DNA from: a virus
DNA: 27,730 nucleotides
Reading direction: 5' to 3' (one strand)
UHGV virus genome: UHGV-0278671
This document shows, in pieces, positions 4,052 to 18,992 of the stretch. Positions within the stretch are counted from its first letter, which is position 1. The number at the start of each line of letters is the position of its first letter. A model generated the notes under the pieces. The model saw only the letters and a program-made list of their open reading frames with translations. It was not told the origin of the DNA and did not search any database. A program made the translations under genes and the position numbers.

Positions 4052-5379
4052 TGTCCGTTCCTATAAATGAGTTTCTGACCAGTTTTAGGGTTCGTTGCCG
4101 TCGCGCCTTCTGATATCCCACTTGGCGCAGCTTTTGTCTGCCCATTACCACCTTGTGGTGTAGGCTGCGCTGTGACATCGTCAAATAGCTTGGCCTTCCT
4201 TCTCCCTAAGCTTTTTTTCAGCCCTTGAGGAATAGTATCTCCATACGTATCCAGATATTCGTCTACCTGCTGGTTAAACTGCTGCCCCATAGCGTTGGCG
4301 TTAATTTTGGCTGCGTTAACAATGTTATCCCTCGCTTCCTGTGACAAGCCATTCCCTGCATTAAGCTGGTCTACATATCCTTTTATCTGCCCCCATATGC
4401 CATCAGAGCGCATGACCTGAACCTGTTCACCTTCGCGAACAACTGACTGAGGGTCGAGAGACTTCATGTAATTAAAGATAATCCCAAGTTGGGCAGCGCC
4501 AGTATTTACCTTGCTAAGGGCTTGCAGAGAGTTTGCCGCCGCTCTGACAGAGTTATAATTTTTGCCAAAATTGGTAATGTCAGAATTTAATCCCTTAATT
4601 AAGTCTGCTGACGGCTTACCTTTTTGCCCCAGCTCCATTAGCTTCACCCCCATCTCATCTGAGTGCATTTGTGCCCGCTGAGCCCTGTCTAGTTGAGCGT
4701 TTTGGATATTTGCCCATCCTCTCACGTTCTCCATGTCAGCCTGACGGATGCTTTCATCCAATCGCCCTTTCTCTAGTTGGCGACCAACCATCTTATCCTG
4801 ATAATCCAGCATTTTATCAGGACCAACAGCCCCTAGCGTCATAGTAGTCAGCATGTGTGATAGCTGCTCTGGATTCTGGATACCTGTCTGAATCATCCAG
4901 TCAGCATTAGCACCAACGCGATTTAACCTGTCCTTGTTGTCAGTAATGAATTTACTGTAGGCTTCCGGTCCCTGAGAAAGAGCGACGTTAGCCCTCATGG
5001 CTAAATCGCCCATATCGTTGCGTTGCTGCTCATTAAGACCGGAAAACGCCTGTTGTGCCTGTGCAACAAACGCTGGATTTTCCTTGGCAAACTTAAATAG
5101 TCCCGATGGATCACCAGAAGCCCATGCATCAGCGTGAACCTTATTGAACGCACTAATCGCTTTCTGTTGCTGTTCCTGATTGTAAATATCAGCAACTCCA
5201 GCCAGACCACGTAACGCGGTCAGACCAACGTTATTTGCACCTGAGCGAGCCAACTCATTGTTTTCGCGGATCAGACCAAGCGTTGCGTTAATGTCGCTTG
5301 CCTTTGGCGCATTCTCATTTTGCGTACCGATGCCAGCCAGAAAACCACCAGAATTAATACCCTGTTGCCAAGTAGCCAT
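4036..5379 (-). CDS. Putative DNA injection/ejection protein (P22 gp20 position), 447 aa
   Basis: Follows the tail-needle gene; Gln/Asn/Ala-rich like internal ejection proteins; positional inference. Confidence 0.5.
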
Positions 5380-5389
5380 TGATTACCCC

Positions 5390-5764
5390 TTAAAACAGCG
5401 AACCAAGCAGACCAAGACCAGCACCGATAACCTCATCCAGCAAGTAATCAACATCGCTACGCAGTACGACTATCTTCCCTTCGGCAGTTGTTAACCTGAC
5501 CTCAAGTAGATTTATCGCTTTTGTGTTTGCGGTGATTCTTGCGTCGTGATCAGCCAGTTCGACATCCTGTTCATCGTTTTTCACCTGAGCATCGTAAGCG
5601 CCCTGACCAGCCTGATTTGCCTTCCCGGCAATTGCGCCGACATCAGCCCCCTGATTAATGACATACAGCAGGTAAGACTGGCTGAATATATTGCGTGGCA
5701 AAATTGAAGCATCAAGCCGCGTAGCCTGAACCACAACAGGTGTATTGAGATTCGAATCAGCCAT
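5390..5764 (-). CDS. Tail needle protein (P22 gp26-like), unusually short at 124 aa
   Basis: [73 protein letters not shown] matches the P22 gp26 N-terminus as remembered; start is the internal ATG at 5764 overlapping the gp10 stop. Confidence 0.6.
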
Positions 5765-6754
5765 TACTCGATCCTTATCTGGCAGCCTGACAGAGTGACA
5801 GGTGACTTCGTGATAACGCGCAATCTGAAGCCGACATTTTTCCTGATGCGCCCGACACGCTTCCACAAAACGCGCTTGTCGTAAACGAACGGTTCATTCT
5901 GCTCAATCATCTGCTCACGACCGTAATTGATGCCGTCAGTGGTTGCAGAGAGAAAAAGTCGGTCAGCATACTGCGCAACGCCAGTTGACGATTCAACTTC
6001 AAGGTCGAAAACTCTGGCGTTATCCGCTTTGAACAACGGAGTAAACAGCAGGTGTTCCTGCTGCTTGTCGTACTGGCTGCTGATATCGAACTGCAATTTC
6101 CCGGTAACAGATTCCAGCTTATCGCCGCACGTTATCTGATTGCCTTCGTAAATGAAGTCGATAGCGCGGTACACATCGTCATACAAGCCAGTTTTCAACA
6201 CACACCATTGCGGACCATTGGCGCTTGAAGATGCGTCGTACACGAGGACATGATGCGGAAGGTGGATAATCAGCAACTCATGAGCATCAAATCGCAGAGA
6301 CTCCATCACGCCATCAGCCAGTTCATCAGCAGTGTAGGAGCGGAGGATTTTCTCAATGCTCGCGCTGGCGATTGGTGACACCTGACCGGAGCCGATGATG
6401 TATACAGACGGCGCACCTGTTGCCGGATTGCTGATGAACGCATAAGAATCAGCGAATGGCGTTTTGCAGTACACGACCACTTCCGGCAACATCACCGACT
6501 TCACTTTCTCCTTTGTACAGCTTGCCGCCACACACGCGATAAACAGCACTCTGCGCCATGTTGTACTCAACTCCGCGCGATACGCCGTTCACATCAGAAC
6601 GTTTGGCAATGCCCGGGAATGAGCGAAGATATCCGCTGCTGTTCAGGATTTCTTTGGGTGTAGCCAACATATTCACTGGCAGATAGTCGATATAGTCGGC
6701 GTTTCTAAAGTCTTTGCCGACACCTTTCATAAGCGGAAGTTGCTGAATCGGCAT
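5764..6754 (-). pseudogene. P22 gp10-like tail accessory gene, disrupted by an internal deletion and frameshift
   Basis: 6449..6754 encodes a gp10-like N-terminus (MPIQQLPLMKGVGKDFRNADYIDYLPVNMLATPKE...); 5764..6570 encodes a gp10-like C-terminus from YCKTPFADSYAFISNPATGAPSVYIIGSG in another frame; junction near 6470, about 130 codons missing. Confidence 0.6.
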
Positions 6755-8527: not shown

Positions 8528-9864
8528 GTGGTAGCGACGTTGCTCGGCATGTTCTCAAGCTGCGACGCACCTGTAATTTGCTGAATAGCCGTTCCGGTGT
8601 ACTGCAATAGCCCAGCAAGAGCAGGAGGCATTTGTGTCGGAGGTGTCCAGCCAGCAACCTGAGCCTCTGAAATGACCGTTCCGTTTTTGTCCTTCTTGCT
8701 GGTCATGGGAAGAACTGCAGGTCTTTTCTTATTCCTCTCTGCCCAGTGATTCATTAATGGACCGGGAATGAAATCAACATCCACGATAGGAATGCCATCG
8801 CCGCCAGCCTGAGTAGCGTTATCTGCAATCATGGAAACCATCAGGTTCTCAAGACGCTGTGCATCCATCGCTTTTGCTGCGTGGCCTTCGATTCGCTCCT
8901 GATTATCAACAAATGAACGACGCCCATATACCGGGATGAGAGGAATATGTTCGCCCGGAATACGCTTCGGTTCTTCCAGCCATTCAGCGCCAGACAGAAG
9001 ACCGCAATAAACTCGGCGTTTCTTCACCGTTCGCTCGCCAATCAGTTCGAATGCACCATCGGTCAGCTCGTCGACAATATCTTTGATTTGCTCTTCATCA
9101 TAGATTGCCGTTTCTCCGCTGACAGGGTTACGCCATGCTGTGAGCTTTACCTTCTCTATGCGGACTTCGTAGTAGCGTCCAACATAGATGGCGTCAGGCG
9201 TTGACCAGTCATACTGAGTACCAGTGTCATCACGAGAAAGGCTTGCCGCGATGGAATCAGGGTATTCAGCCTCGAACGCTTTAGGCGTCATGGAGAACAT
9301 TTCCATAGCCCACATGGCATCAGAGCGGTCATATTGCTTGCTGTCCTGATCGAAGAAGACGCATGTCGCCGGGTCGTAAACAGGAAGAAGGCTGATGCGT
9401 CGCTGCTCGTTACTCGGATCCATTTCATCTTCGTAATCAGCGCACATGCGGAAACAACCGAATCCGCCCGTTACAGCATCATCAAATGCGTTATCACACG
9501 CTTCGCCACCGGATGTTTCCTGATAATCAGCGCGGAATTTGCCGTTCATCTTTTCGGCTAACGCTTCCGATGCCTTGTCATCCTTCGGCCTGAATTTAAC
9601 GCTGATGCGATTCTGTCGATACTCGCCAATGATGCGATCACATTCACGGGCAATCTTATTCAGTTCAAAGCGCGGGTAATGCTCAAACCTGCCTTCATCA
9701 AATGAGTAACCAGCGTTTGTGCTGCCTTCCCACTGTGCGCCGGACACCCGGACGAAACGTTGAGCCTCAATAATCTGCTTACGCATATCCTGCGTTGCTG
9801 ACCAGGCATTATCAAAGTTGCACAGCACCTTGCGATGCCAGTCAGTCATCTTTTTTTCTGCCAT
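8524..9864 (-). CDS. Portal protein (P22 gp1-like), apparently C-terminally truncated (446 aa versus ~700)
   Basis: KKRRVYCGLLSGAEWLEEPKRIPGEHIPLIPVYG matches the P22 portal IKRRRVY...AGEHIPIVPVFG region as remembered; the ORF ends where crown/barrel domains would follow and abuts the coat gene with no scaffold gene between. Confidence 0.6.
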   Translation of the reverse strand: MAEKKMTDWHRKVLCNFDNAWSATQDMRKQIIEAQRFVRVSGAQWEGSTNAGYSFDEGRFEHYPRFELNKIARECDRIIGEYRQNRISVKFRPKDDKASEALAEKMNGKFRADYQETSGGEACDNAFDDAVTGGFGCFRMCADYEDEMDPSNEQRRISLLPVYDPATCVFFDQDSKQYDRSDAMWAMEMFSMTPKAFEAEYPDSIAASLSRDDTGTQYDWSTPDAIYVGRYYEVRIEKVKLTAWRNPVSGETAIYDEEQIKDIVDELTDGAFELIGERTVKKRRVYCGLLSGAEWLEEPKRIPGEHIPLIPVYGRRSFVDNQERIEGHAAKAMDAQRLENLMVSMIADNATQAGGDGIPIVDVDFIPGPLMNHWAERNKKRPAVLPMTSKKDKNGTVISEAQVAGWTPPTQMPPALAGLLQYTGTAIQQITGASQLENMPSNVATT

Positions 9865-9865
9865 A

Positions 9866-10837
9866 TCAACCTACACCACAAGGAATTGAGTAACTGGAAT
9901 AGTCGGGTTGCGCAGCCGACTCCGGGCAATGCATACACATCATCAGCGCATCAGCCAGGTTAGGAGATGGAATACCGAGCTTCTGCTTCATTTCGACCTT
10001 AGTCATAAGCTCCAGCTTCCCGTTGTTATTGAATTTGCGCTGAATCTGCGTCAGTTCTGCAAACAGCTTCTCCAGCATCTTCTCGCCTATCGCTTCTTTG
10101 TCGAAGCTCAGCATGTCGTCTGGGTCTGCATACTCACCGTGGACAACCGCCCGATATGTCAGATACAGCCTGTCAGCCAGCGCGTAATAGAATTGCGCTC
10201 GCTTATTGCGGAACACATCGCCAATAGTGCGAACGTTGTCGCCCTGTACGACTTCATCGGCCCATGCTCCGGCCTGATATGGTGCATCTTCATCGAATGG
10301 CGATTCGCTACCCTTGAACATCGTGGCGGTGATTTTCTTGCCGGAGAACGCTTCCGTTGTCTGTCTGCGCAGCCCTGCACCGACACCATCGCCATCCCAC
10401 AGGTAATGGTCAGCGCCGTCTTCAATCGCCAGCGAAGTTGCCCAGTCAGCACCCTCGTTGATGTCCATCAGCAGACCTTCGGCAATGCGCTTAACTACCG
10501 AACCGTGACGCGATGCATAACCTTTAGCATCTGGCCCTGTATCTGACGGGTCATGTGCAGAGACAACAGCGCCTTTCGCTTTCCATCCGAGTTTCTTGTG
10601 CGCATCGGTTGCGGATTCAAGCCATTCACGTTTGATGATTGCCATATCACTTGCGCTTACTGGATCACCAAGCCAGATGTGACGATACAGTGTCGGATTT
10701 CTACGTTTACACTCTTCCATCTCCAGACGGAGAACTTCAGGAAAGTGCGGGTTCCCGGATCTACGCTCTCCATGAACTTCGCTATTACGCTGCTCATGCG
10801 CTTTTCCAGACGACCTGAATAAACCCATGCGCCCCAC
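9866..10837 (-). pseudogene. Terminase large subunit, C-terminal nuclease-domain fragment; ATPase domain absent
   Basis: Reading from about NPHFPEV... HIWLGDPV... AHDPSDTGPDAKGYA... SPNLADALMMCM looks like a terminase C-terminal domain; no Walker A region; directly upstream of portal. Confidence 0.6.
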
Positions 10838-10902
10838 AGTTCAAGCCAGCCATTCAGCCACTCATGCTGTTCTTTGGTGAGGTTTAGTTCTCTTATGCCC
10901 AC
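10657..10902 (-). pseudogene. Q: N-terminal fragment of a Q-type late antiterminator (WGAW family)
   Basis: First ~47 residues ([47 protein letters not shown]) resemble the Q82/QuuD-family N-terminus (WGAW motif); the remainder looks like read-through and overlaps the terminase fragment. Confidence 0.45.
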
Positions 10903-12356: not shown

Positions 12357-12531
12357 CGTCTTCTTCCTCGTACATTGAGCTATTCGGATCGCTCATCAGT
12401 TCTGCGCAGCAGTGCTCACACACGTGAACTTCCAGCACATGCAGCTTCTGACCGCAGTTAGCGCACGTTAAAGCTCGCTCGACGCTTTCTTTCTGGTATT
12501 GAAGGGATTGGGATGGGCTAAGCATTAACAA
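12349..12531 (-). CDS. ninF: NinF
   Basis: [44 protein letters not shown] matches lambda NinF as remembered. Confidence 0.85.
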
Positions 12532-13465
12532 CCTCCATACAAACTTTCACGAATGCCGTTGCTACTTCTGCATTGATTGCGTTTCCATATCCAATAATTC
12601 GCTGATCTTGATTGCGCTTTGCCATTCTTCCCAGTGTGGACTTGCCTCGTCCCAAGCTTTTGGCAATGCCATTAACCATCGGGAATGAGCCGGGTCTAAC
12701 TGGACGATATTTTTCATCTCTACAGTAAAGCCAGTCTGCATCTCTCCAGAAGCCGTTAACCGGTAATGGGTACATAGCTTCACCGTCCCGGGAAGTTTCA
12801 AGCAGATTCTTGGGGTTCCGCTCTTGTCTTTTCCGCTGTAGCAATGCGTTGAACCTGTTGCATCGTTCGCTAAAGGAGTTTGCCATCCCGCTAGTCTCAC
12901 GCATCCAGATAGGTTCTGAATTCCCCTGCGTGTCTCTGGCTGAAAGTTGATATTTGTCGTTGGAGTAGGCCACCCAATACAATCGCTGCCTGATGTGCGG
13001 AGAACCGAAGCCCGCAGCGCAAATATCGGTACCTGCAGAGGTGTAGTTCGCACCTTCCAAGTCAGTTTGTACAAGGTCGAGCCAAGCGAGGCCGTCTGCG
13101 CTTGCAACCTGTTCGCCAATAACGATGCCAGGATTGCATTTTTCAATAAGCCAGAAGAATGCCGGCCATAAGTGCCGCTCGTCATCAACCCCTTTTCCTT
13201 TGCCTGCCGAGCTGAAAGGTTGGCATGGGCAACTTCCTGTCCAGATACTCTTGTTGTCTGGCCATCCTGCTTTTCTAAGTGCATAGCTCCAAACTCCGAT
13301 TCCTGCAAAAAAGTGGTGCTGGGTAAATCCTCGCAAATCACCTGGTGTGACATCTTCAATACTCCTTTCATCTACATACCGTCTGTCGCTGTTGTATGCA
13401 CTGCTCAGCGGCTTTTTCCACCCACGGTCTGATATTGCTGTACGGTGGGTTATTCCAGATTGCAC
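12518..13465 (-). CDS. DNA (cytosine-5)-methyltransferase-like gene, atypical; true start uncertain
   Basis: Motif I FFAGIG, motif IV GSCPCQPFSSAGK, ENV-like IVIGEQV, motif VIII PHIRQRLYWVAY, motif X-like GYGNAINAEVATAF. Only ~25 residues separate motifs I and IV; the first ~33 codons overlap the Dam fragment; a second long ORF (12562..13371) overlaps in another frame. Confidence 0.55.
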   Translation of the reverse strand: MQSGITHRTAISDRGWKKPLSSAYNSDRRYVDERSIEDVTPGDLRGFTQHHFFAGIGVWSYALRKAGWPDNKSIWTGSCPCQPFSSAGKGKGVDDERHLWPAFFWLIEKCNPGIVIGEQVASADGLAWLDLVQTDLEGANYTSAGTDICAAGFGSPHIRQRLYWVAYSNDKYQLSARDTQGNSEPIWMRETSGMANSFSERCNRFNALLQRKRQERNPKNLLETSRDGEAMYPLPVNGFWRDADWLYCRDEKYRPVRPGSFPMVNGIAKSLGRGKSTLGRMAKRNQDQRIIGYGNAINAEVATAFVKVCMEVVNA

Positions 13466-13652
13466 CGTGGCTTATCCACTCAGAATTTAGCGCGTCGTCG
13501 GCCTCAGTTAACCAGTGAGCGCACAGAGCATTTTTGTCGCTCGCTGCCGAATCCAGCCAGAATCCAAACTCAATATCCAGTGCATCAAAAAGCCAAAGCG
13601 GCGTTTGCCAGCAGTCCTTGTCGTGTGCTGGCGTATTTGATTTGATAGTCAT
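13368..13652 (-). pseudogene. Phage Dam-type N6-adenine methyltransferase, N-terminal fragment
   Basis: DKDCWQTPLWLFDALDIEFGFWLDSAAS...WNNPPYS matches the phage Dam family pattern; the ORF stops ~25 codons after NPPY; ATG overlaps the ninB stop (ATGA). Confidence 0.55.
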
Positions 13653-14089
13653 GCAGCCCGATCTCCCCATCTCGCTTTCCACTCCAGAGCCAGTCTCGCT
13701 TCGTCTGACCACTTAACGCCACGCTCTGTACCGAATGCCTGTATAAGCTCTAATAGCTCCGCAAATTCGCTTACACGCATCCTGCTGGTTGACTGGCCTA
13801 TTACCACAAAGCCATTCCCGGCAAGGTTAGGAACAACGTCCTGCTGCTTTAATGCTGCGGTAAACACACACTTCCAGCTTTCTGCATCCAGCCAACGCCC
13901 ATGCCATTCAACCTGACGAGAGACGTCACCAAGGCAAGCCCAAAGCTTTCGATTCTGGTCTAAGCTGCGGTTGCGCTCCTGAATGATCACTACGATTGGC
14001 TTGGTTGGGTCTGGAAGGATTTGCTGTACCGCGTGAATAGCGTTTTGCTGATGTGCCGGAGATCGAATTTCAAAGGTTAGTTTTTTCAT
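13649..14089 (-). CDS. ninB: NinB recombination protein
   Basis: 146 aa from the internal ATG (MKKLTFEIRSPAHQQNAIHAVQQILPDPTKPIVV...), near-identical to lambda NinB as remembered. Confidence 0.9.
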   Translation of the reverse strand: MKKLTFEIRSPAHQQNAIHAVQQILPDPTKPIVVIIQERNRSLDQNRKLWACLGDVSRQVEWHGRWLDAESWKCVFTAALKQQDVVPNLAGNGFVVIGQSTSRMRVSEFAELLELIQAFGTERGVKWSDEARLALEWKARWGDRAA

Positions 14090-14166
14090 GACTTCCCTCT
14101 CCCCCAAATAAAAAGGCCTGCGATTACCAGCAGGCCTGTTACAAGCTCAGTGATGTAGATGGTCAT

Positions 14167-16047
14167 TTAATACTCCGTCACGTTTTCCTGTCGCCACGCC
14201 TCGTCATATTCCGATTTCGGCATATTGGCGATGTAGCTATAAGGCGATCCTGATTCAAGTTGCAGGAACTGGTGCGATTGCTCGTCAAGGAACAACGGGA
14301 CACCACCTTCCCAACCTTCGCCGTTACGTTGTTTTTCAAGCATCAAAACAGATGCCGGAGATGCCAGTAGCTGTTCGTCCTTCTCTGACATCTTTTCACC
14401 ACTCTGAACTCTCTGTAACGCTCTCTCGCGAGCCTTGTTACGCCAGATGATAAAAAGGTTGTCTGTCAGGTCTGTTATCGCTCCAGAGCCTTTTACGTCC
14501 ATTTTCCCGGTTGGTTTTTCTTCGCTATCTCCTTTTCTGGAGTGAGTAACGAGAATGACGTGGGAGTTTGTTTTGTTTTTGAAGTCACAAATCGAGTCAA
14601 CAAATGCTTTCTGCCCGTTATAGTCATCGTCACCTATGCCGCATTTCATCAGGCTGTCGATGATGAATAACTGGATGCCGTATCGGCGGCGAGCGTAGTC
14701 GAATATTTCGATCAGCCTGTCGGCTTTCGCCGTTCCAGTCAGGCCAAACACCCAAAGTCTTTCGTCATAAAATTTAAATGCAGAGTCAATTTCCAGCACT
14801 GGCGGCATCTTGCAGCACGTCGCCTGACGGGTAAGGCGCTTAAGGAGAATACCAGGCTTCAGCTCAAGTGACGCGATGCACGTCTTCACACCCTGACGCA
14901 TTGCCTCAAGTGCCATATGCCCGACAACCTCCGTTTTTCCGTGACCGTTCACACCATTGACCAGCGTCAACTCGGCCTCACGAAACTGGAATTTATCTGC
15001 CAGAGATTCCCACGGTGGATTAAACAGATACTGCTGCTTGCCGTAGAAAGCGTTGATAGTGTCCTGGTAAAACTCTCGCGCGCTGTAGAGTTCTTCAGGA
15101 TCAAAGTAGGATGCCGTGCCGATGTACTGCCAGATTTCATCCTCGGTAACACCGTTCATCAGGCATTCGTTGATGTCTTTGTACGGCAGAGTAACAAGAC
15201 GGCAACGATGTTCACCGAGTCGGCTTGCGATTTCCCTTGCGGCTTCACGACCAACATCATCAACGTCCATCGAGATGAATATTTCCTCAAACCTGTCGAG
15301 GTTGTGGTACTCAAACTCAATCCACTGTTGCTTAGCGCCTTTCCCTCCACCAAACGGCACGGATAACGCCGAGATGCCGTATTGCGCATAGCTCATACAA
15401 TCAATTTCGCCTTCGCAAAGTACAACCGCCCTCACGCCAGCGTCCAGAGCCTGCCATCCGAACAGACAAGGTTCGCAATCACCTTCTGCCATAATGACTT
15501 TCTTCCCGTCCGGGCGCTCAGTGCTGATTCGCTTGACCTGCAACAACTCACCATCGCGTTTGTACGGAAGCACCAGTGCATCAAGTTCTCGTTCTCCATT
15601 CCACACCTTGCCGCTGACAACCTCGTAGCGCTTTACGACTTCTGGCGATATGCCACGCGATTGCAGGTACTCAAGATGGGATTCTGTTCTGGTAACGTAG
15701 CGGGCGATTTTCTTGCGATCAGGTCTGGAGAATTTTTTCTCACGTTTGGCATCGAAATGGTGATCGTCATCCTTGATACCGAGAAATGCTTTCGCTTCCT
15801 GCATAGCCTGATGCAGGTTAATTCCACGACATGCCATCCACAAATCAAGCATGTCACCGCCGTCTCCCTCAGCGAAATCAGCCCATTTTTTCTTGCCGCT
15901 AAGGTTGACCTTAAGGCTGTTTCCCTTGTCACCATTGACGTTACCGGCAACCCACTCATGCCCCTCTTTCTTGCCGTTTGGCAACAGGTGCGGAGCCACC
16001 CTGTCAACCTGCGCCCAAAGCAGGTCGCTAAGTTCACTTGGCGTCAT
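14167..16047 (-). CDS. Bifunctional DNA primase/helicase
   Basis: 626 aa; Toprim-like acidic motifs (VVLCEGEIDCMS, ISMDVDDVG) followed by Walker A GVNGHGKT and Walker B-like LFIIDSLMK; directly downstream of the initiator gene. Confidence 0.8.
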   Translation of the reverse strand: MTPSELSDLLWAQVDRVAPHLLPNGKKEGHEWVAGNVNGDKGNSLKVNLSGKKKWADFAEGDGGDMLDLWMACRGINLHQAMQEAKAFLGIKDDDHHFDAKREKKFSRPDRKKIARYVTRTESHLEYLQSRGISPEVVKRYEVVSGKVWNGERELDALVLPYKRDGELLQVKRISTERPDGKKVIMAEGDCEPCLFGWQALDAGVRAVVLCEGEIDCMSYAQYGISALSVPFGGGKGAKQQWIEFEYHNLDRFEEIFISMDVDDVGREAAREIASRLGEHRCRLVTLPYKDINECLMNGVTEDEIWQYIGTASYFDPEELYSAREFYQDTINAFYGKQQYLFNPPWESLADKFQFREAELTLVNGVNGHGKTEVVGHMALEAMRQGVKTCIASLELKPGILLKRLTRQATCCKMPPVLEIDSAFKFYDERLWVFGLTGTAKADRLIEIFDYARRRYGIQLFIIDSLMKCGIGDDDYNGQKAFVDSICDFKNKTNSHVILVTHSRKGDSEEKPTGKMDVKGSGAITDLTDNLFIIWRNKARERALQRVQSGEKMSEKDEQLLASPASVLMLEKQRNGEGWEGGVPLFLDEQSHQFLQLESGSPYSYIANMPKSEYDEAWRQENVTEY

Positions 16048-16154
16048 GATTCCCTCAGATTGAGATTTTTAAACCAGAAATCGACAAACGAAATACTTAA
16101 CCAGCCGTGGTTATAACCAGCAACCAGTAGCGATTTGATTTTTGATTTCATGGT

Positions 16155-17015
16155 TCACCTGTCGAAAAACACGTAGCCAGTTTTCGATACGGTGATTGCG
16201 GATGATGGTTTGGATTGTGGTTGAATAGTTTCTGGCTTCTCGTCGTTCCAGCGTTGACCGTTCAGGTAGCTCGATGGTAACAACCTGTCGAATCCGAACT
16301 GCTTACCATTCCTGCATGCGATGTCTTCTGCCAGCATCGTGGCAAACTCGCTTGCCGTACCCCTGGTAGTTTTACGCCATTCCCTGAACTGTGTTCTGAA
16401 TGCCGAAGCTGCGTTTTTCTTCCCGGCTTTCCGCATGCCTGCACACCAGAATATTTCCTCGAATGCCTTGTCGGTTTCTTCGTGACGGTCATGTGATTTT
16501 TCACACTCCGTCCGAACACTTTCGGACATAGTGTTTTTATTATTTCTTTTTTCTTTTGTAATAGTTTCTTTTGTGTGTCCCTGTTTTGGTGACAGCGCTG
16601 TCACCGTTTTGGTGACACTTTTTGTCACCAATGCAGTGACATTATCACCAGAGTAGTGACACCCTTCGATTTGCCATTCTTCGATGTTCTTGTTAGGCCC
16701 GATTTGCTGGCCTTCGCGAAGGATAACCTTCATCGCGATAAGCTCATTCTTGGCCTTGTTTACCTTCTGTCTTGGCAGCCTGGTAATTTGAGCTAACTGA
16801 CTATCAGAAATGCGATCCATCTTTTTACCGTAGCCGTATGTTTTACGGCATATGGCGTGGGCAACCTTGCTCTGATTTTTCGTTAAATCTGCGCCGATAA
16901 GCTCTTCATACAGGGCATTTGCAAGACGGGTATAACCATCTTCAACTTCTGCCACACGACGCTCCACAGGCCGTTGTGAAGGCCTTAAATGTGTTACGGT
17001 TGCAAGATTACTCAT
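16155..17015 (-). CDS. Replication initiator (lambda O-like) with the origin inside the gene
   Basis: Position after cII; AAGGAG Shine-Dalgarno; the iteron array is translated in frame as a repetitive [18 protein letters not shown] linker. Confidence 0.75.
16524..16664 (-). repeat. Replication origin: four iterons plus adjacent AT-rich tract
   Basis: Iterons with GGTGACA/TGTCACC inverted cores at 16584-16605, 16606-16630, 16631-16650 and 16651-16664; AT-rich tract 16524-16580. Confidence 0.7.
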
Positions 17016-17166
17016 GACCTTTCTCCTTCTGCATCAGCTTCACTTTTTCCAACTCAGCCCGGAATCGACCAGGCTGCTTGAAGCTGGACAGGAAGCGATC
17101 ACGTAGTATGTGTTTGTGAATTTTGTCCTGGTAAGGACTGAGTTGTTTTGTCATAATGACTCCTGT

Positions 17167-17241
17167 GGATTGATCCAGTAATGACCTCAGAATTCCATCT
17201 GGATTTGTTCAGAACGCTCGGTTGCCTCCGGGCGTTTTTTA
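17167..17241 (+). ncRNA. oop: oop antisense RNA overlapping the cII 3' end
   Basis: Plus strand gattgatccagtaatgacctcagaattccatctggatttgttcagaacgctcggttgcctccgggcgtttttt closely matches lambda oop as remembered; CATAAT -10 at 17152-17157; hairpin plus T6 terminator. Confidence 0.6.
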
Positions 17242-17480
17242 TTGGTGAGAATCGAAGCAACTTGTCGTGCCAATCGAGCCATATCGTCGTCGACGACGCC
17301 CCATTCAAGAACAGCAAGCAGCATTGAGAACTTTGGAATCCAATCCCTCTTCCACCTGCTGATCTGCGACTTATCAACTCCCACAGCTTCCGCTGTCTTC
17401 TCAGTTCCAAGCATTGCGATTTTGTTAAGCAACGCACTCTCGATTCTTAGAGCCTCGTTGCGTTTGTTTGCACGAACCAT
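17187..17480 (-). CDS. cII: CII transcriptional activator
   Basis: 97 aa [51 protein letters not shown]... essentially lambda CII; lambda-like leader taaggaaatacttacatATG; the ORF-track N-terminal extension is not used. Confidence 0.9.
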
Positions 17481-17889: not shown

Positions 17890-18606
17890 ATGGAAAATAA
17901 AAAATCACTGACGACAGAACAGCTCGAAGACGCTAAGCGGCTTAAGGCTTTGTATGAGTCAAAAAAGAAAGAATTGGGGATAACCCAATACTCAATCGCT
18001 GATGAACTGGGTATCACCCAAGGAGCGGTAGGGCATTATCTTAATGGCAGAAACGCGCTAAACGTTGAGGTTGCATCTGGTTTTGCACGACTGTTGCAAG
18101 TCTCAATTGCTGATTTTAGCCAGTCAATTGCTGCCAAGGTTGCAGAACAGGCAGAAAGCCTTAAGAGCGATGCCAACGTAAGGTATGCAGGGGAATACAG
18201 AGCAGGAAAGAGGTATCCGGTGTTAAGCAGTATCCAGGCTGGCTCGTGGTGTGAAGCATGCGAACCATACACCATTAAAGACATAGATGTTTGGCTTGAG
18301 TCTGACGCGCATATTCAAGGTAATGCGTTCTGGCTTAAAGTGGAAGGTGATTCAATGACGGCACCGGTTGGGTTAAGCATTCCAGAGGGAACATTCGTTC
18401 TTTTCGATACCGGAAGGGAGGCGATCAACGGCAGCTTGGTCATAGCAAAACTTTCTGACTCTAACGAAGCAACATTCAAGAAGCTGATAATCGACGGCGG
18501 AAATAAATACCTTAAGGGACTTAATCCTGCATGGCCTCTCGTGCCAATCAATGGAAACTGCAAGATTATAGGCGTTGCAATTGAGACAAAACTAAGGCTG
18601 GTTTGA
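17890..18606 (+). CDS. cI: CI repressor (HTH plus LexA-like self-cleaving C-terminal domain)
   Basis: N-terminus LTTEQLEDAKRLKALYESKKKELGITQ and HTH; C-terminal FWLKVEGDSMTAP...FKKLI matches lambda CI FWLEVEGNSMTAP...FKKLI (catalytic Ser/Lys context). Confidence 0.9.
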   Translation: MENKKSLTTEQLEDAKRLKALYESKKKELGITQYSIADELGITQGAVGHYLNGRNALNVEVASGFARLLQVSIADFSQSIAAKVAEQAESLKSDANVRYAGEYRAGKRYPVLSSIQAGSWCEACEPYTIKDIDVWLESDAHIQGNAFWLKVEGDSMTAPVGLSIPEGTFVLFDTGREAINGSLVIAKLSDSNEATFKKLIIDGGNKYLKGLNPAWPLVPINGNCKIIGVAIETKLRLV

Positions 18607-18623
18607 TCACGCAAGGGGCGATT

Positions 18624-18992
18624 ATGGTTGGAACCGCTATAGCAAGCTTTTTTGGGATGTTGGCAATCTCGACAATTTACGGCTTAGCGCATGCTTTTAT
18701 TGCGAAATCTCTATCAGAAAAAATAAGCCAGGCTTGGGCGCATAGATCAGCTCGTTTCATGATTCTAGTGATCATAGCAATACAAGGGATATCTGCATTT
18801 ATCCTCTATGGTTCAAGCTTATACCTGTTGTATCAAGGCGCGACATTTACGCCTTACACCAGTGATTACGGAACTCTATACGATGGTAGTGAAGACATCT
18901 CTATGGCTTGGATTGTCTTTGGTTTATCTATGGCCGTGTCTGTTGTAGCAGATATCATTAAGGTAATTCTCGTCTTAACCTTCGCTGACTAA
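18624..18992 (+). CDS. Polytopic inner-membrane protein co-transcribed with cI (rexB/sieB position)
   Basis: AAGGGG 6 nt before ATG 18624, 18 nt after the cI stop; about four hydrophobic helices in 122 aa; no similarity to lambda RexB recognised. Confidence 0.55.
   Translation: MVGTAIASFFGMLAISTIYGLAHAFIAKSLSEKISQAWAHRSARFMILVIIAIQGISAFILYGSSLYLLYQGATFTPYTSDYGTLYDGSEDISMAWIVFGLSMAVSVVADIIKVILVLTFAD

Follow-up and report, generated by a model that had tools for sequence, protein, structure and literature searches.

Origins inside O-family initiator genes

Replication origins that lie inside O-family genes and use phage-specific iterons are textbook knowledge. They have been described for lambda, P22 and phage L (PMC8022706) and for Stx phages (PMC7466680). 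In ori-lambda (NC_001416) the iterons (39034-39118) are situated within the initiator gene, where the sequences for the N- and C-terminal domains of O meet. The annotated iteron starts (39034, 39054, 39078 and 39101) define four 19-bp dyads at a spacing of 20, 24 and 23 bp with A-tract-like centres (CAAAAC), and P and ren lie downstream of O. In the GenBank record of the Salmonella phage ES18 a rep_origin 'similar to lambda ori' is annotated in gene 59, beside gp61, a 'putative primase/helicase', and an equivalent O-like and primase/helicase region has been described for the Salmonella phage epsilon34 (PMC2629481). The version carried by phi24B and F403 has been named Eru5, in a paper which remarks that nothing is known on the replication proteins of such Eru types (PMC8951638).

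Here we describe an O-family gene and the repeats inside it in UHGV virus genome UHGV-0278671. The window, that is the whole stretch of 27,730 nucleotides that was analysed, represents a P22-like lambdoid prophage that runs in reverse. Read with decreasing coordinates, it carries integrase, erf/ssb, cI, cro, cII and O, then a helicase gene, followed by the nin region and the late genes.

The O-family gene of the window

The O-family replication initiator gene (16155-17015, minus strand) encodes 286 aa. Pfam Phage_rep_O (PF04492) covers aa 20-114 with E = 1.1e-37 (128.8 bits, cut-off 28.7) and NCBIfam phage_O_Nterm (TIGR01610) matches with 105.4 bits (cut-off 45.5); the N-terminal part belongs to PHROG 277 and the C-terminal part to PHROG 33384. 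The C-terminal domain is without a Pfam family and without a solved relative, and a sequence search of the PDB detected no relative of O.

The protein can be divided into a predicted iteron-binding domain (aa 1-118), a linker (aa 119 to about 176) and a C-terminal domain (aa about 177-286). The iterons described below encode aa 119-147 and the adjacent AT-rich tract encodes aa 148-161, so that both lie between the two domains. A structure model of O displayed a winged-helix-like N-terminal domain of four helices and two strands (aa 43-116, pLDDT 66-85), pLDDT values below 50 across aa 117-176 and a helical C-terminal domain (aa 179-235); as a weak model from a shallow alignment of 16 sequences (mean pLDDT 53.6), it was used for its pattern of order and disorder only, with no fold search. 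This pattern is consistent with aa 119-161 being an interdomain linker.

A 48-aa ORF (17008-17154, minus strand) overlaps the start of O and matches phrog_1913, which is labelled 'tail protein'. In related loci an ORF at this place carries Pfam DUF2740; the 48-aa ORF is the counterpart of P22 orf48 and HK97 gp53. Since most related loci keep the ORF immediately before O, the label is probably a misnomer.

Four dyad iterons and an AT-rich tract

A motif search of the whole 27.7-kb window revealed four 19-bp dyad repeats of the form TGTCACC-N5-GGTGACA, spanning 16576-16661, with the consensus TGTCACCNNNNNGGTGACA and zero to two mismatches per copy. All four lie on the minus strand and are numbered in the direction of O transcription. 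Iteron 1 (16643-16661; TGTCACTACTCTGGTGATA) has two mismatches to the consensus and is read in codon phase 0, encoding CHYSGDN; iteron 2 (16623-16641; TGTCACTGCATTGGTGACA) has one mismatch and encodes NVTALVT in phase 2. Iteron 3 (16599-16617; TGTCACCAAAACGGTGACA), read in phase 2 as SVTKTVT, is identical to the consensus and forms a perfect 7-bp dyad, and iteron 4 (16576-16594; TGTCACCAAAACAGGGACA), with two mismatches, encodes LSPKQGH in phase 1 and abuts the AT-rich tract. Every copy is an inverted repeat. When up to three mismatches were allowed, only one further match was detected in the window (at 15927, three mismatches), and none of 100 dinucleotide shuffles contained five or more matches (shuffle mean 0.67).

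The AT-rich tract (16534-16575, minus strand; CACAAAAGAAACTATTACAAAAGAAAAAAGAAATAATAAAAA on the gene strand) is a purine-skewed stretch of 42 bp on the promoter-distal side of the iterons, with a GC content of 0.225 and 33 purines on the gene strand. In a nearest-neighbour analysis of duplex stability, its least stable 40-step segment took rank 21 among the 27,690 of the window and lay 3.6 SD above the mean. It is the predicted unwinding element and also the mosaic recombination joint. When 16495-16670 was folded as single-stranded DNA (z = -7.8 against shuffles), the AT-rich tract was left unpaired between hairpins.

The repeats and the AT-rich tract are confirmed by these searches. An earlier note on this DNA had placed four GGTGACA/TGTCACC iterons inside an O-like gene, and the repeat search indeed finds four 19-bp copies where the shuffles do not; the AT-rich tract that it had seen beside them stands as well (16534-16575, GC 0.225, stability rank 21 of 27,690), and its span of 16524-16664 covers both elements. 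It had further stated that the iterons encode a repetitive linker. They do encode linker sequence (aa 119-147), but the peptide repeat was overstated: the copies are read in phases 0, 2, 2 and 1, that is in three codon phases on the gene strand, and only two of the four give similar peptides.

Just beyond the AT-rich tract, at the place of the ori palindrome of lambda, lies a palindrome with 14-bp arms (16503-16534; ACACTCCGTCCGAA / TTCGGACATAGTGT). It is found in ES18 and phi24B too and travels with the C-terminal/primase-helicase module; its role is uncertain.

Conservation of the iteron arms

A codon alignment was made of the window's O gene and eight homologues (protein identity 67-81%), whose sources were Pseudescherichia, Leclercia, Citrobacter, Klebsiella, Pantoea and metagenomes. 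The 7-bp iteron arms are almost invariant across the nine sequences; variation is found in the central 5 bp and in the spacers, and the variable amino-acid positions map there too. The nine sequences are interrelated, and in this recombinogenic region recombination could inflate local conservation. Mean pairwise identity at third codon positions was 0.889 for the arms and 0.893 for the AT-rich tract, compared with 0.580 for the N-terminal and 0.466 for the C-terminal domain. In 100,000 random draws of equally many third positions from the N-terminal domain, the value of the arms was never reached. The contrast between arms and N-terminal domain is hard to explain without constraint at the DNA level. 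For the palindrome at 16503-16534, third-codon conservation in the divergent homologues was moderate (0.72). Among 75 close variants the AT-rich tract contained no variable site, and polymorphism in the origin was mildly lower (0.062 versus 0.090 per site).

The copies stand in three codon phases and the third codon positions of their arms are conserved; the repeats are DNA signals and not peptide repeats.

Comparison with lambda and related phages

The lambda iterons share their number, their 19-bp length, their 20/24/23-bp spacing and their A-tract-like centres with those of the window, and in both phages they lie inside the initiator gene at the domain junction. After the fourth iteron, lambda and the window read CACAAAAGA(A/C)ACTATTACAAAAGAAAAAAGAAA, with one mismatch in 33 (32/33 identical over the first 33 bp of the AT-rich tract), and a palindrome lies beyond in both. 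The N-terminal domain of lambda O (Phage_rep_O family) is 53% identical to that of the window. The arms differ, however, being ATCCCTC/GAGGGAT in lambda and TGTCACC/GGTGACA in the window. The lambda-like organisation with a different iteron sequence that the earlier note had described is thus borne out by the spacing, the AT-rich tract (32/33) and the arms (TGTCACC versus ATCCCTC). The C-terminal domain of lambda O is unrelated to that of the window, and DNA matches to lambda occur only outside the O gene (14100-14166 and 17147-17200). Downstream, where lambda has P and ren, the window has a gp4-like Toprim-helicase and no ren gene. A lambda O/P module, in which O recruits P-DnaB, was ruled out: the C-terminal domains do not align and the next gene is not P.

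ES18 (gene 59 and gp61) and epsilon34 (gp50 and gene 52) combine the same O C-terminal domain and primase/helicase as the window, and ES18 is 88% identical to the window at the nucleotide level over 16588-14163. Unlike the window, both have a lambda-type N-terminal domain and lambda-type iterons (ATCCCTCAAAATGAGGGA). The pairing of initiator and primase-helicase noted earlier is present, but it is less unusual than had been implied, being already contained in the ES18 record and in the description of epsilon34 (PMC2629481).

P22 and the Erwinia phage phiEt88 share several features with the window. P22 gene 18/ori (with gene 12) has an O-family N-terminal domain 51% identical to that of the window, and phiEt88 gp50 one of 59.5% identity; both genes contain internal dyad iterons and an AT-rich tract that starts with ACACAAAAGA. 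The phiEt88 arms (TGTTACC/GGTAACA) are one base per arm away from those of the window. Both phages differ from the window in their C-terminal domains and in the partner, a DnaB-type helicase that has no Toprim domain.

The Stx phages of type Eru5 (Stx2a_F403, phi24B, Min27) share with the window the C-terminal domain of O and a primase-helicase homologous to that of the window (96-98% nucleotide identity over 16539-14163; PMC8951638), but they have an unrelated HTH N-terminal domain, three copies of a GC-rich repeat (GGGGCAGGAGCTGCCC), no lambda-like AT-rich tract and a longer helicase gene (969 aa). In the O gene of phi24B (4851-5627) the three GC-rich direct repeats lie at gene positions of about 290-360; each is a dyad, and they encode GGAGAA-type peptide repeats. 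No lambda-like AT-rich tract precedes the shared palindrome in phi24B.

Four published phage genomes carry the same module. Over the 3-kb region 14100-17100, identity to the window was 99.8% for the Shigella phage Sf101, 99.4% for the coliphage mEp043, 98.1% for vB_EcoP-720R6 and 91.4% for SEN22. The N-terminal domain and iterons (16540-17015) are 99.2-99.6% identical in these four phages, where O is annotated; an annotation of origin or iterons is absent from the Sf101 and SEN22 records. The origin and iterons are not discussed in the Sf101 paper (PMC4159516), and a paper on lambdoid co-transfer is likewise silent on the origin. The Escherichia phages PhiR12_1, PhiR12_2, PhiR12_4 and PhiR12_5 (PV340549 and related) have the window's N-terminal domain and four iterons (99.1% identity over 17198-16543), followed after the AT-rich tract by a lambda-type C-terminal domain and then P and ren, and are thus the reciprocal recombinant. 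This suggests that the iteron type of the window also works with the P/DnaB route.

Mosaic structure of the O gene

The seven O-family genes compared have seven N-domain types and seven arm sequences: TGTCACC in the window, TGTTACC in phiEt88, TTTACC in P22, TTACC(C/T) in PhiR26_1, TTAGC(C/T) in mEp213, ATCCCTC in lambda and ES18, and the GC-rich repeats behind the unrelated HTH N-terminal domain of phi24B. The iterons are followed by ACACAAAAGA in the O-family genes compared, with phi24B lacking a lambda-like AT-rich tract. In this set the iteron sequence goes with the type of the O N-terminal domain, and in recombinants both are transferred jointly, which lends indirect support to a specific binding of iterons by their own initiator.

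The C-terminal domain, on the same kind of comparison, goes with the downstream partner gene. One C-terminal domain with its Toprim-helicase stands behind three different N-terminal domains, namely the lambda type (ES18), the window type and the unrelated HTH type (phi24B). The window-type C-terminal domain is followed by a Toprim_2/AAA_25 gene of 624-629 aa in all eight divergent loci analysed (five genera and metagenomes). The helicase gene also follows it in 149 IMG/VR loci; the two scans of this collection yielded mainly near-identical loci and thus added prevalence and little diversity. Lambda-type C-terminal domains precede P, and those of the P22, mEp213 and phiEt88 types precede DnaB-like helicases. 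The mosaic recombination joints can be placed at 16539-16543, inside the shared AT-rich tract, since the matching segments of the recombinants PhiR12_1 and phi24B end there.

The downstream Toprim-helicase

The next gene (14167-16047, minus strand) encodes a 626-aa member of the T7 gp4 / Twinkle family that combines Toprim and SF4 (DnaB-like) helicase domains and is presumed to pair with the C-terminal domain of O. Pfam searches revealed Toprim_2 (E = 3.1e-12) and AAA_25 (28.0 bits, above the cut-off of 27), with DnaB_C below the 27-bit cut-off (23.8 bits), and PHROG 239, 'DNA primase/helicase', matched with E = 1.9e-171. The protein was aligned to residues 75-444 of gp4, and the T7 gp4 structures 5ikn and 6n7i matched with E of about 1e-23 (5ikn, 2.7e-23) and Twinkle with E = 6.5e-14. 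Motifs of the Toprim domain (EGEID at 212, DVD at 261) and the Walker A motif GVNGHGKT (at 365) are intact. A match of residues 26-143 to the N-terminus of DnaG (dnaG, TIGR01391) is weak (37.9 bits, cut-off 283.6).

A Cys4 zinc ribbon is absent from the first 190 aa, which contain a single cysteine (C73). T7 gp4 and DnaG have such a ribbon, and in primase-helicases of this type a Cys4 zinc-binding domain is needed for primase template recognition; for metazoan Twinkle, as for the 626-aa protein, primase activity cannot be assumed. A helicase function is well supported; a primase function is plausible, its uncertainty stemming from the missing zinc ribbon. The earlier note had described a primase-helicase in place of a P-type loader. 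The replacement holds, the gene at 14167-16047 encoding Toprim and DnaB-like helicase domains (5ikn, E = 2.7e-23); of the name, the Toprim and helicase parts stand and the primase activity is unproven, given one cysteine in the N-terminal 190 aa.

Interpretation as a probable replication origin

The site is very probably an O-dependent replication origin of a lambdoid (P22-like) prophage, similar to ori-lambda and located within the gene of its own initiator. This reading is based on its likeness to lambda, namely the same place in the gene, the 20/24/23-bp spacing, the AT-rich tract (32/33) and an N-terminal domain of 53% identity, on the statistical support for repeats and AT-rich tract, on the constraint at the DNA level, on the linkage of iterons to N-terminal domain and of C-terminal domain to partner gene, and on the ES18 record, in which the equivalent site is annotated as rep_origin. 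By homology with lambda O, dimers of the winged-helix N-terminal domain would occupy each iteron, and the DNA would become wrapped into an O-some. As at ori-lambda, the stress of the O-some together with rightward pR transcription through cro-cII-O would open the AT-rich tract; as the order cro-cII-O is kept, transcription from pR is expected to cross the origin.

The C-terminal domain would then recruit the phage-encoded T7 gp4-like Toprim-helicase, which would replace the P-DnaB complex. This specific step, suggested by gene linkage, appears somewhat more likely than not. Helicase loading would then proceed without host DnaB and without the remodelling of P by DnaK/DnaJ/GrpE, and priming may also be phage-encoded. 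We lean, with more caution, towards the view that the C-terminal domain (PHROG 33384) is a dedicated adaptor for loading a gp4/Twinkle-like Toprim-helicase at a lambda-type origin, with the AT-rich tract as a universal coupling sequence. If this view is true, initiation would be independent of host DnaB, DnaC and DnaK/DnaJ/GrpE, perhaps also of DnaG, and recombination could join any iteron/N-domain specificity to any helicase-recruitment system. The linkage of C-terminal domain and helicase is documented in genome annotations; biochemical work on it was not found in the searched literature.

Three other explanations were weighed. The iterons might be O-binding sites in a genome whose replication starts elsewhere; they would then serve autoregulation, copy control or incompatibility, or be relics, and the helicase would have a separate entry site, such as the palindrome (16503-16534) or an R-loop formed by transcription, as in T7. 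It is established for T7 that gp4-type helicases load themselves without a dedicated origin-binding initiator, and such a start would agree with a palindrome that goes with the helicase module and not with the iterons, and with the phi24B-type O, which has GC-rich repeats and no lambda-like AT-rich tract and yet the same C-terminal domain and helicase. We nevertheless regard this explanation as improbable: the synonymous-site conservation of the AT-rich tract (0.893) matches that of the iterons, its duplex is among the least stable of the window, the palindrome is conserved only moderately (0.72), and the strict gene linkage of O C-terminal domain and helicase argues for a functional contact at the iterons.

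That the dyads are operators of another protein (a repressor, Cro, CII or a host factor), placed in the O gene by coincidence, is very improbable. The iteron type changes with the type of the O N-terminal domain rather than with immunity; iterons and N-terminal domain are common to PhiR12_1, Sf101 and SEN22, whose genomic contexts differ; and the cI region of the window is for the most part unrelated to its Sf101 counterpart (only 340 bp align, 73%), while the O region is 99.4% identical. These points outweigh the resemblance of dyads with 7-bp arms to many operators and the presence of a similar-looking palindrome (TATCACTTAAATAAGTGATA) at 88-107. It is hardly credible that the repeats are a by-product of a repetitive flexible protein linker and have no function as DNA. 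The segment does encode a low-complexity stretch predicted to be disordered (pLDDT below 50), but its three codon phases give peptides unrelated to one another (CHYSGDN, NVTALVT, SVTKTVT, LSPKQGH), every copy is a dyad, which is meaningless for coding, the synonymous positions of the arms are far more conserved than those of the flanking domain, and the varying amino-acid positions map to iteron centres and spacers. None of the three fits synonymous-site conservation, dyad symmetry and N-domain linkage together.

Distribution and significance

The module was found in 180 of 5426 complete E. coli genomes (about 3%), in 13 phage records at 99% identity or more and in at least 80 IMG/VR contigs. 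The TGTCACC-N5-GGTGACA iteron was not found in the searched literature, and a search for the Sf101 replication protein was likewise empty. The iteron is thus a so far undescribed specificity of a well-known kind of origin in an often-sequenced module, and the arrangement of O-like gene and primase/helicase is already known. Nothing here overturns current understanding, and the direct value of the finding is annotation. The matched pairs of N-terminal domain and iteron, among them those with TGTCACC in the window, TGTTACC in phiEt88 and ATCCCTC in lambda, are usable for analysing how O-type winged-helix domains read DNA. The step that we would flag is the putative hand-off of the origin by an O-type initiator to a gp4-like helicase and not to P-DnaB. 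Stx2 phages of the Eru5 type, in which toxin output is affected by the control of replication, have the same C-terminal domain and helicase.

Signals around the probable origin

One DnaA-box-like sequence (TTTTTCACA), bordering the palindrome, lies at 16497-16505. No other was found in 16000-17300, and the match is probably due to chance. A search for host-factor sites around the origin revealed neither an IHF consensus nor a GATC cluster, Rfam at gathering thresholds gave no match in the window, and a scan for consensus promoters revealed nothing above expectation. 'Terminators' called inside the origin by a promoter/terminator scan are the iteron and palindrome hairpins themselves and were rejected. 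Antisense to the 3' end of cII, a strong intrinsic-terminator-like hairpin with a T run is present at 17211-17238 (plus strand). It is situated where lambda and P22 carry the oop RNA terminator and has no Rfam match.

State of the prophage

The cI-like repressor gene (17890-18992; HTH_3 and Peptidase_S24) differs from that of Sf101, with 340 bp aligning at 73% identity, which implies a different immunity although the replication genes are 99% identical. A 129-aa ORF without a Pfam match (18603-18992) overlaps the end of this gene. In 12518-13712, about 850 bp replace the NinX/NinE segment of Sf101. A Dam-type N6-adenine methylase ORF in this part (13368-13712) matches positions 1-90 of a 169-position profile only, and the ORF that follows it, at 12518-13465, corresponds to the central part of a C-5 cytosine methylase (positions 64-211 of 324).

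Compared with Sf101, the segment 5500-12600 displays internal deletions with junctions at 6470/6471, 8530-8533 and 10753-10900. They remove 427 bp of the DNA-stabilisation (gp10-like) gene; about 2.0 kb comprising the 3' end of the portal gene, the scaffold gene and the 5' end of the coat gene; and about 4.8 kb comprising the 5' part of TerL, TerS, Q, holin, lysozyme, Rz and Rha. For portal, coat, terminase and stabilisation proteins, Pfam gave partial matches only. None of the complete E. coli genomes in the collection carried the deletion junctions in one piece. Given the deletions and the partial matches, the prophage does not look capable of producing virions, although the replication module remains intact; since the late genes look defective, this copy of the origin may never fire productively.

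The palindrome at 88-107 is near-perfect over 20 bp and lies within an AT-rich segment (69-109) that is among the least stable of the window. It looks operator-like, with a half-site similar to TATCAC in iteron 1.
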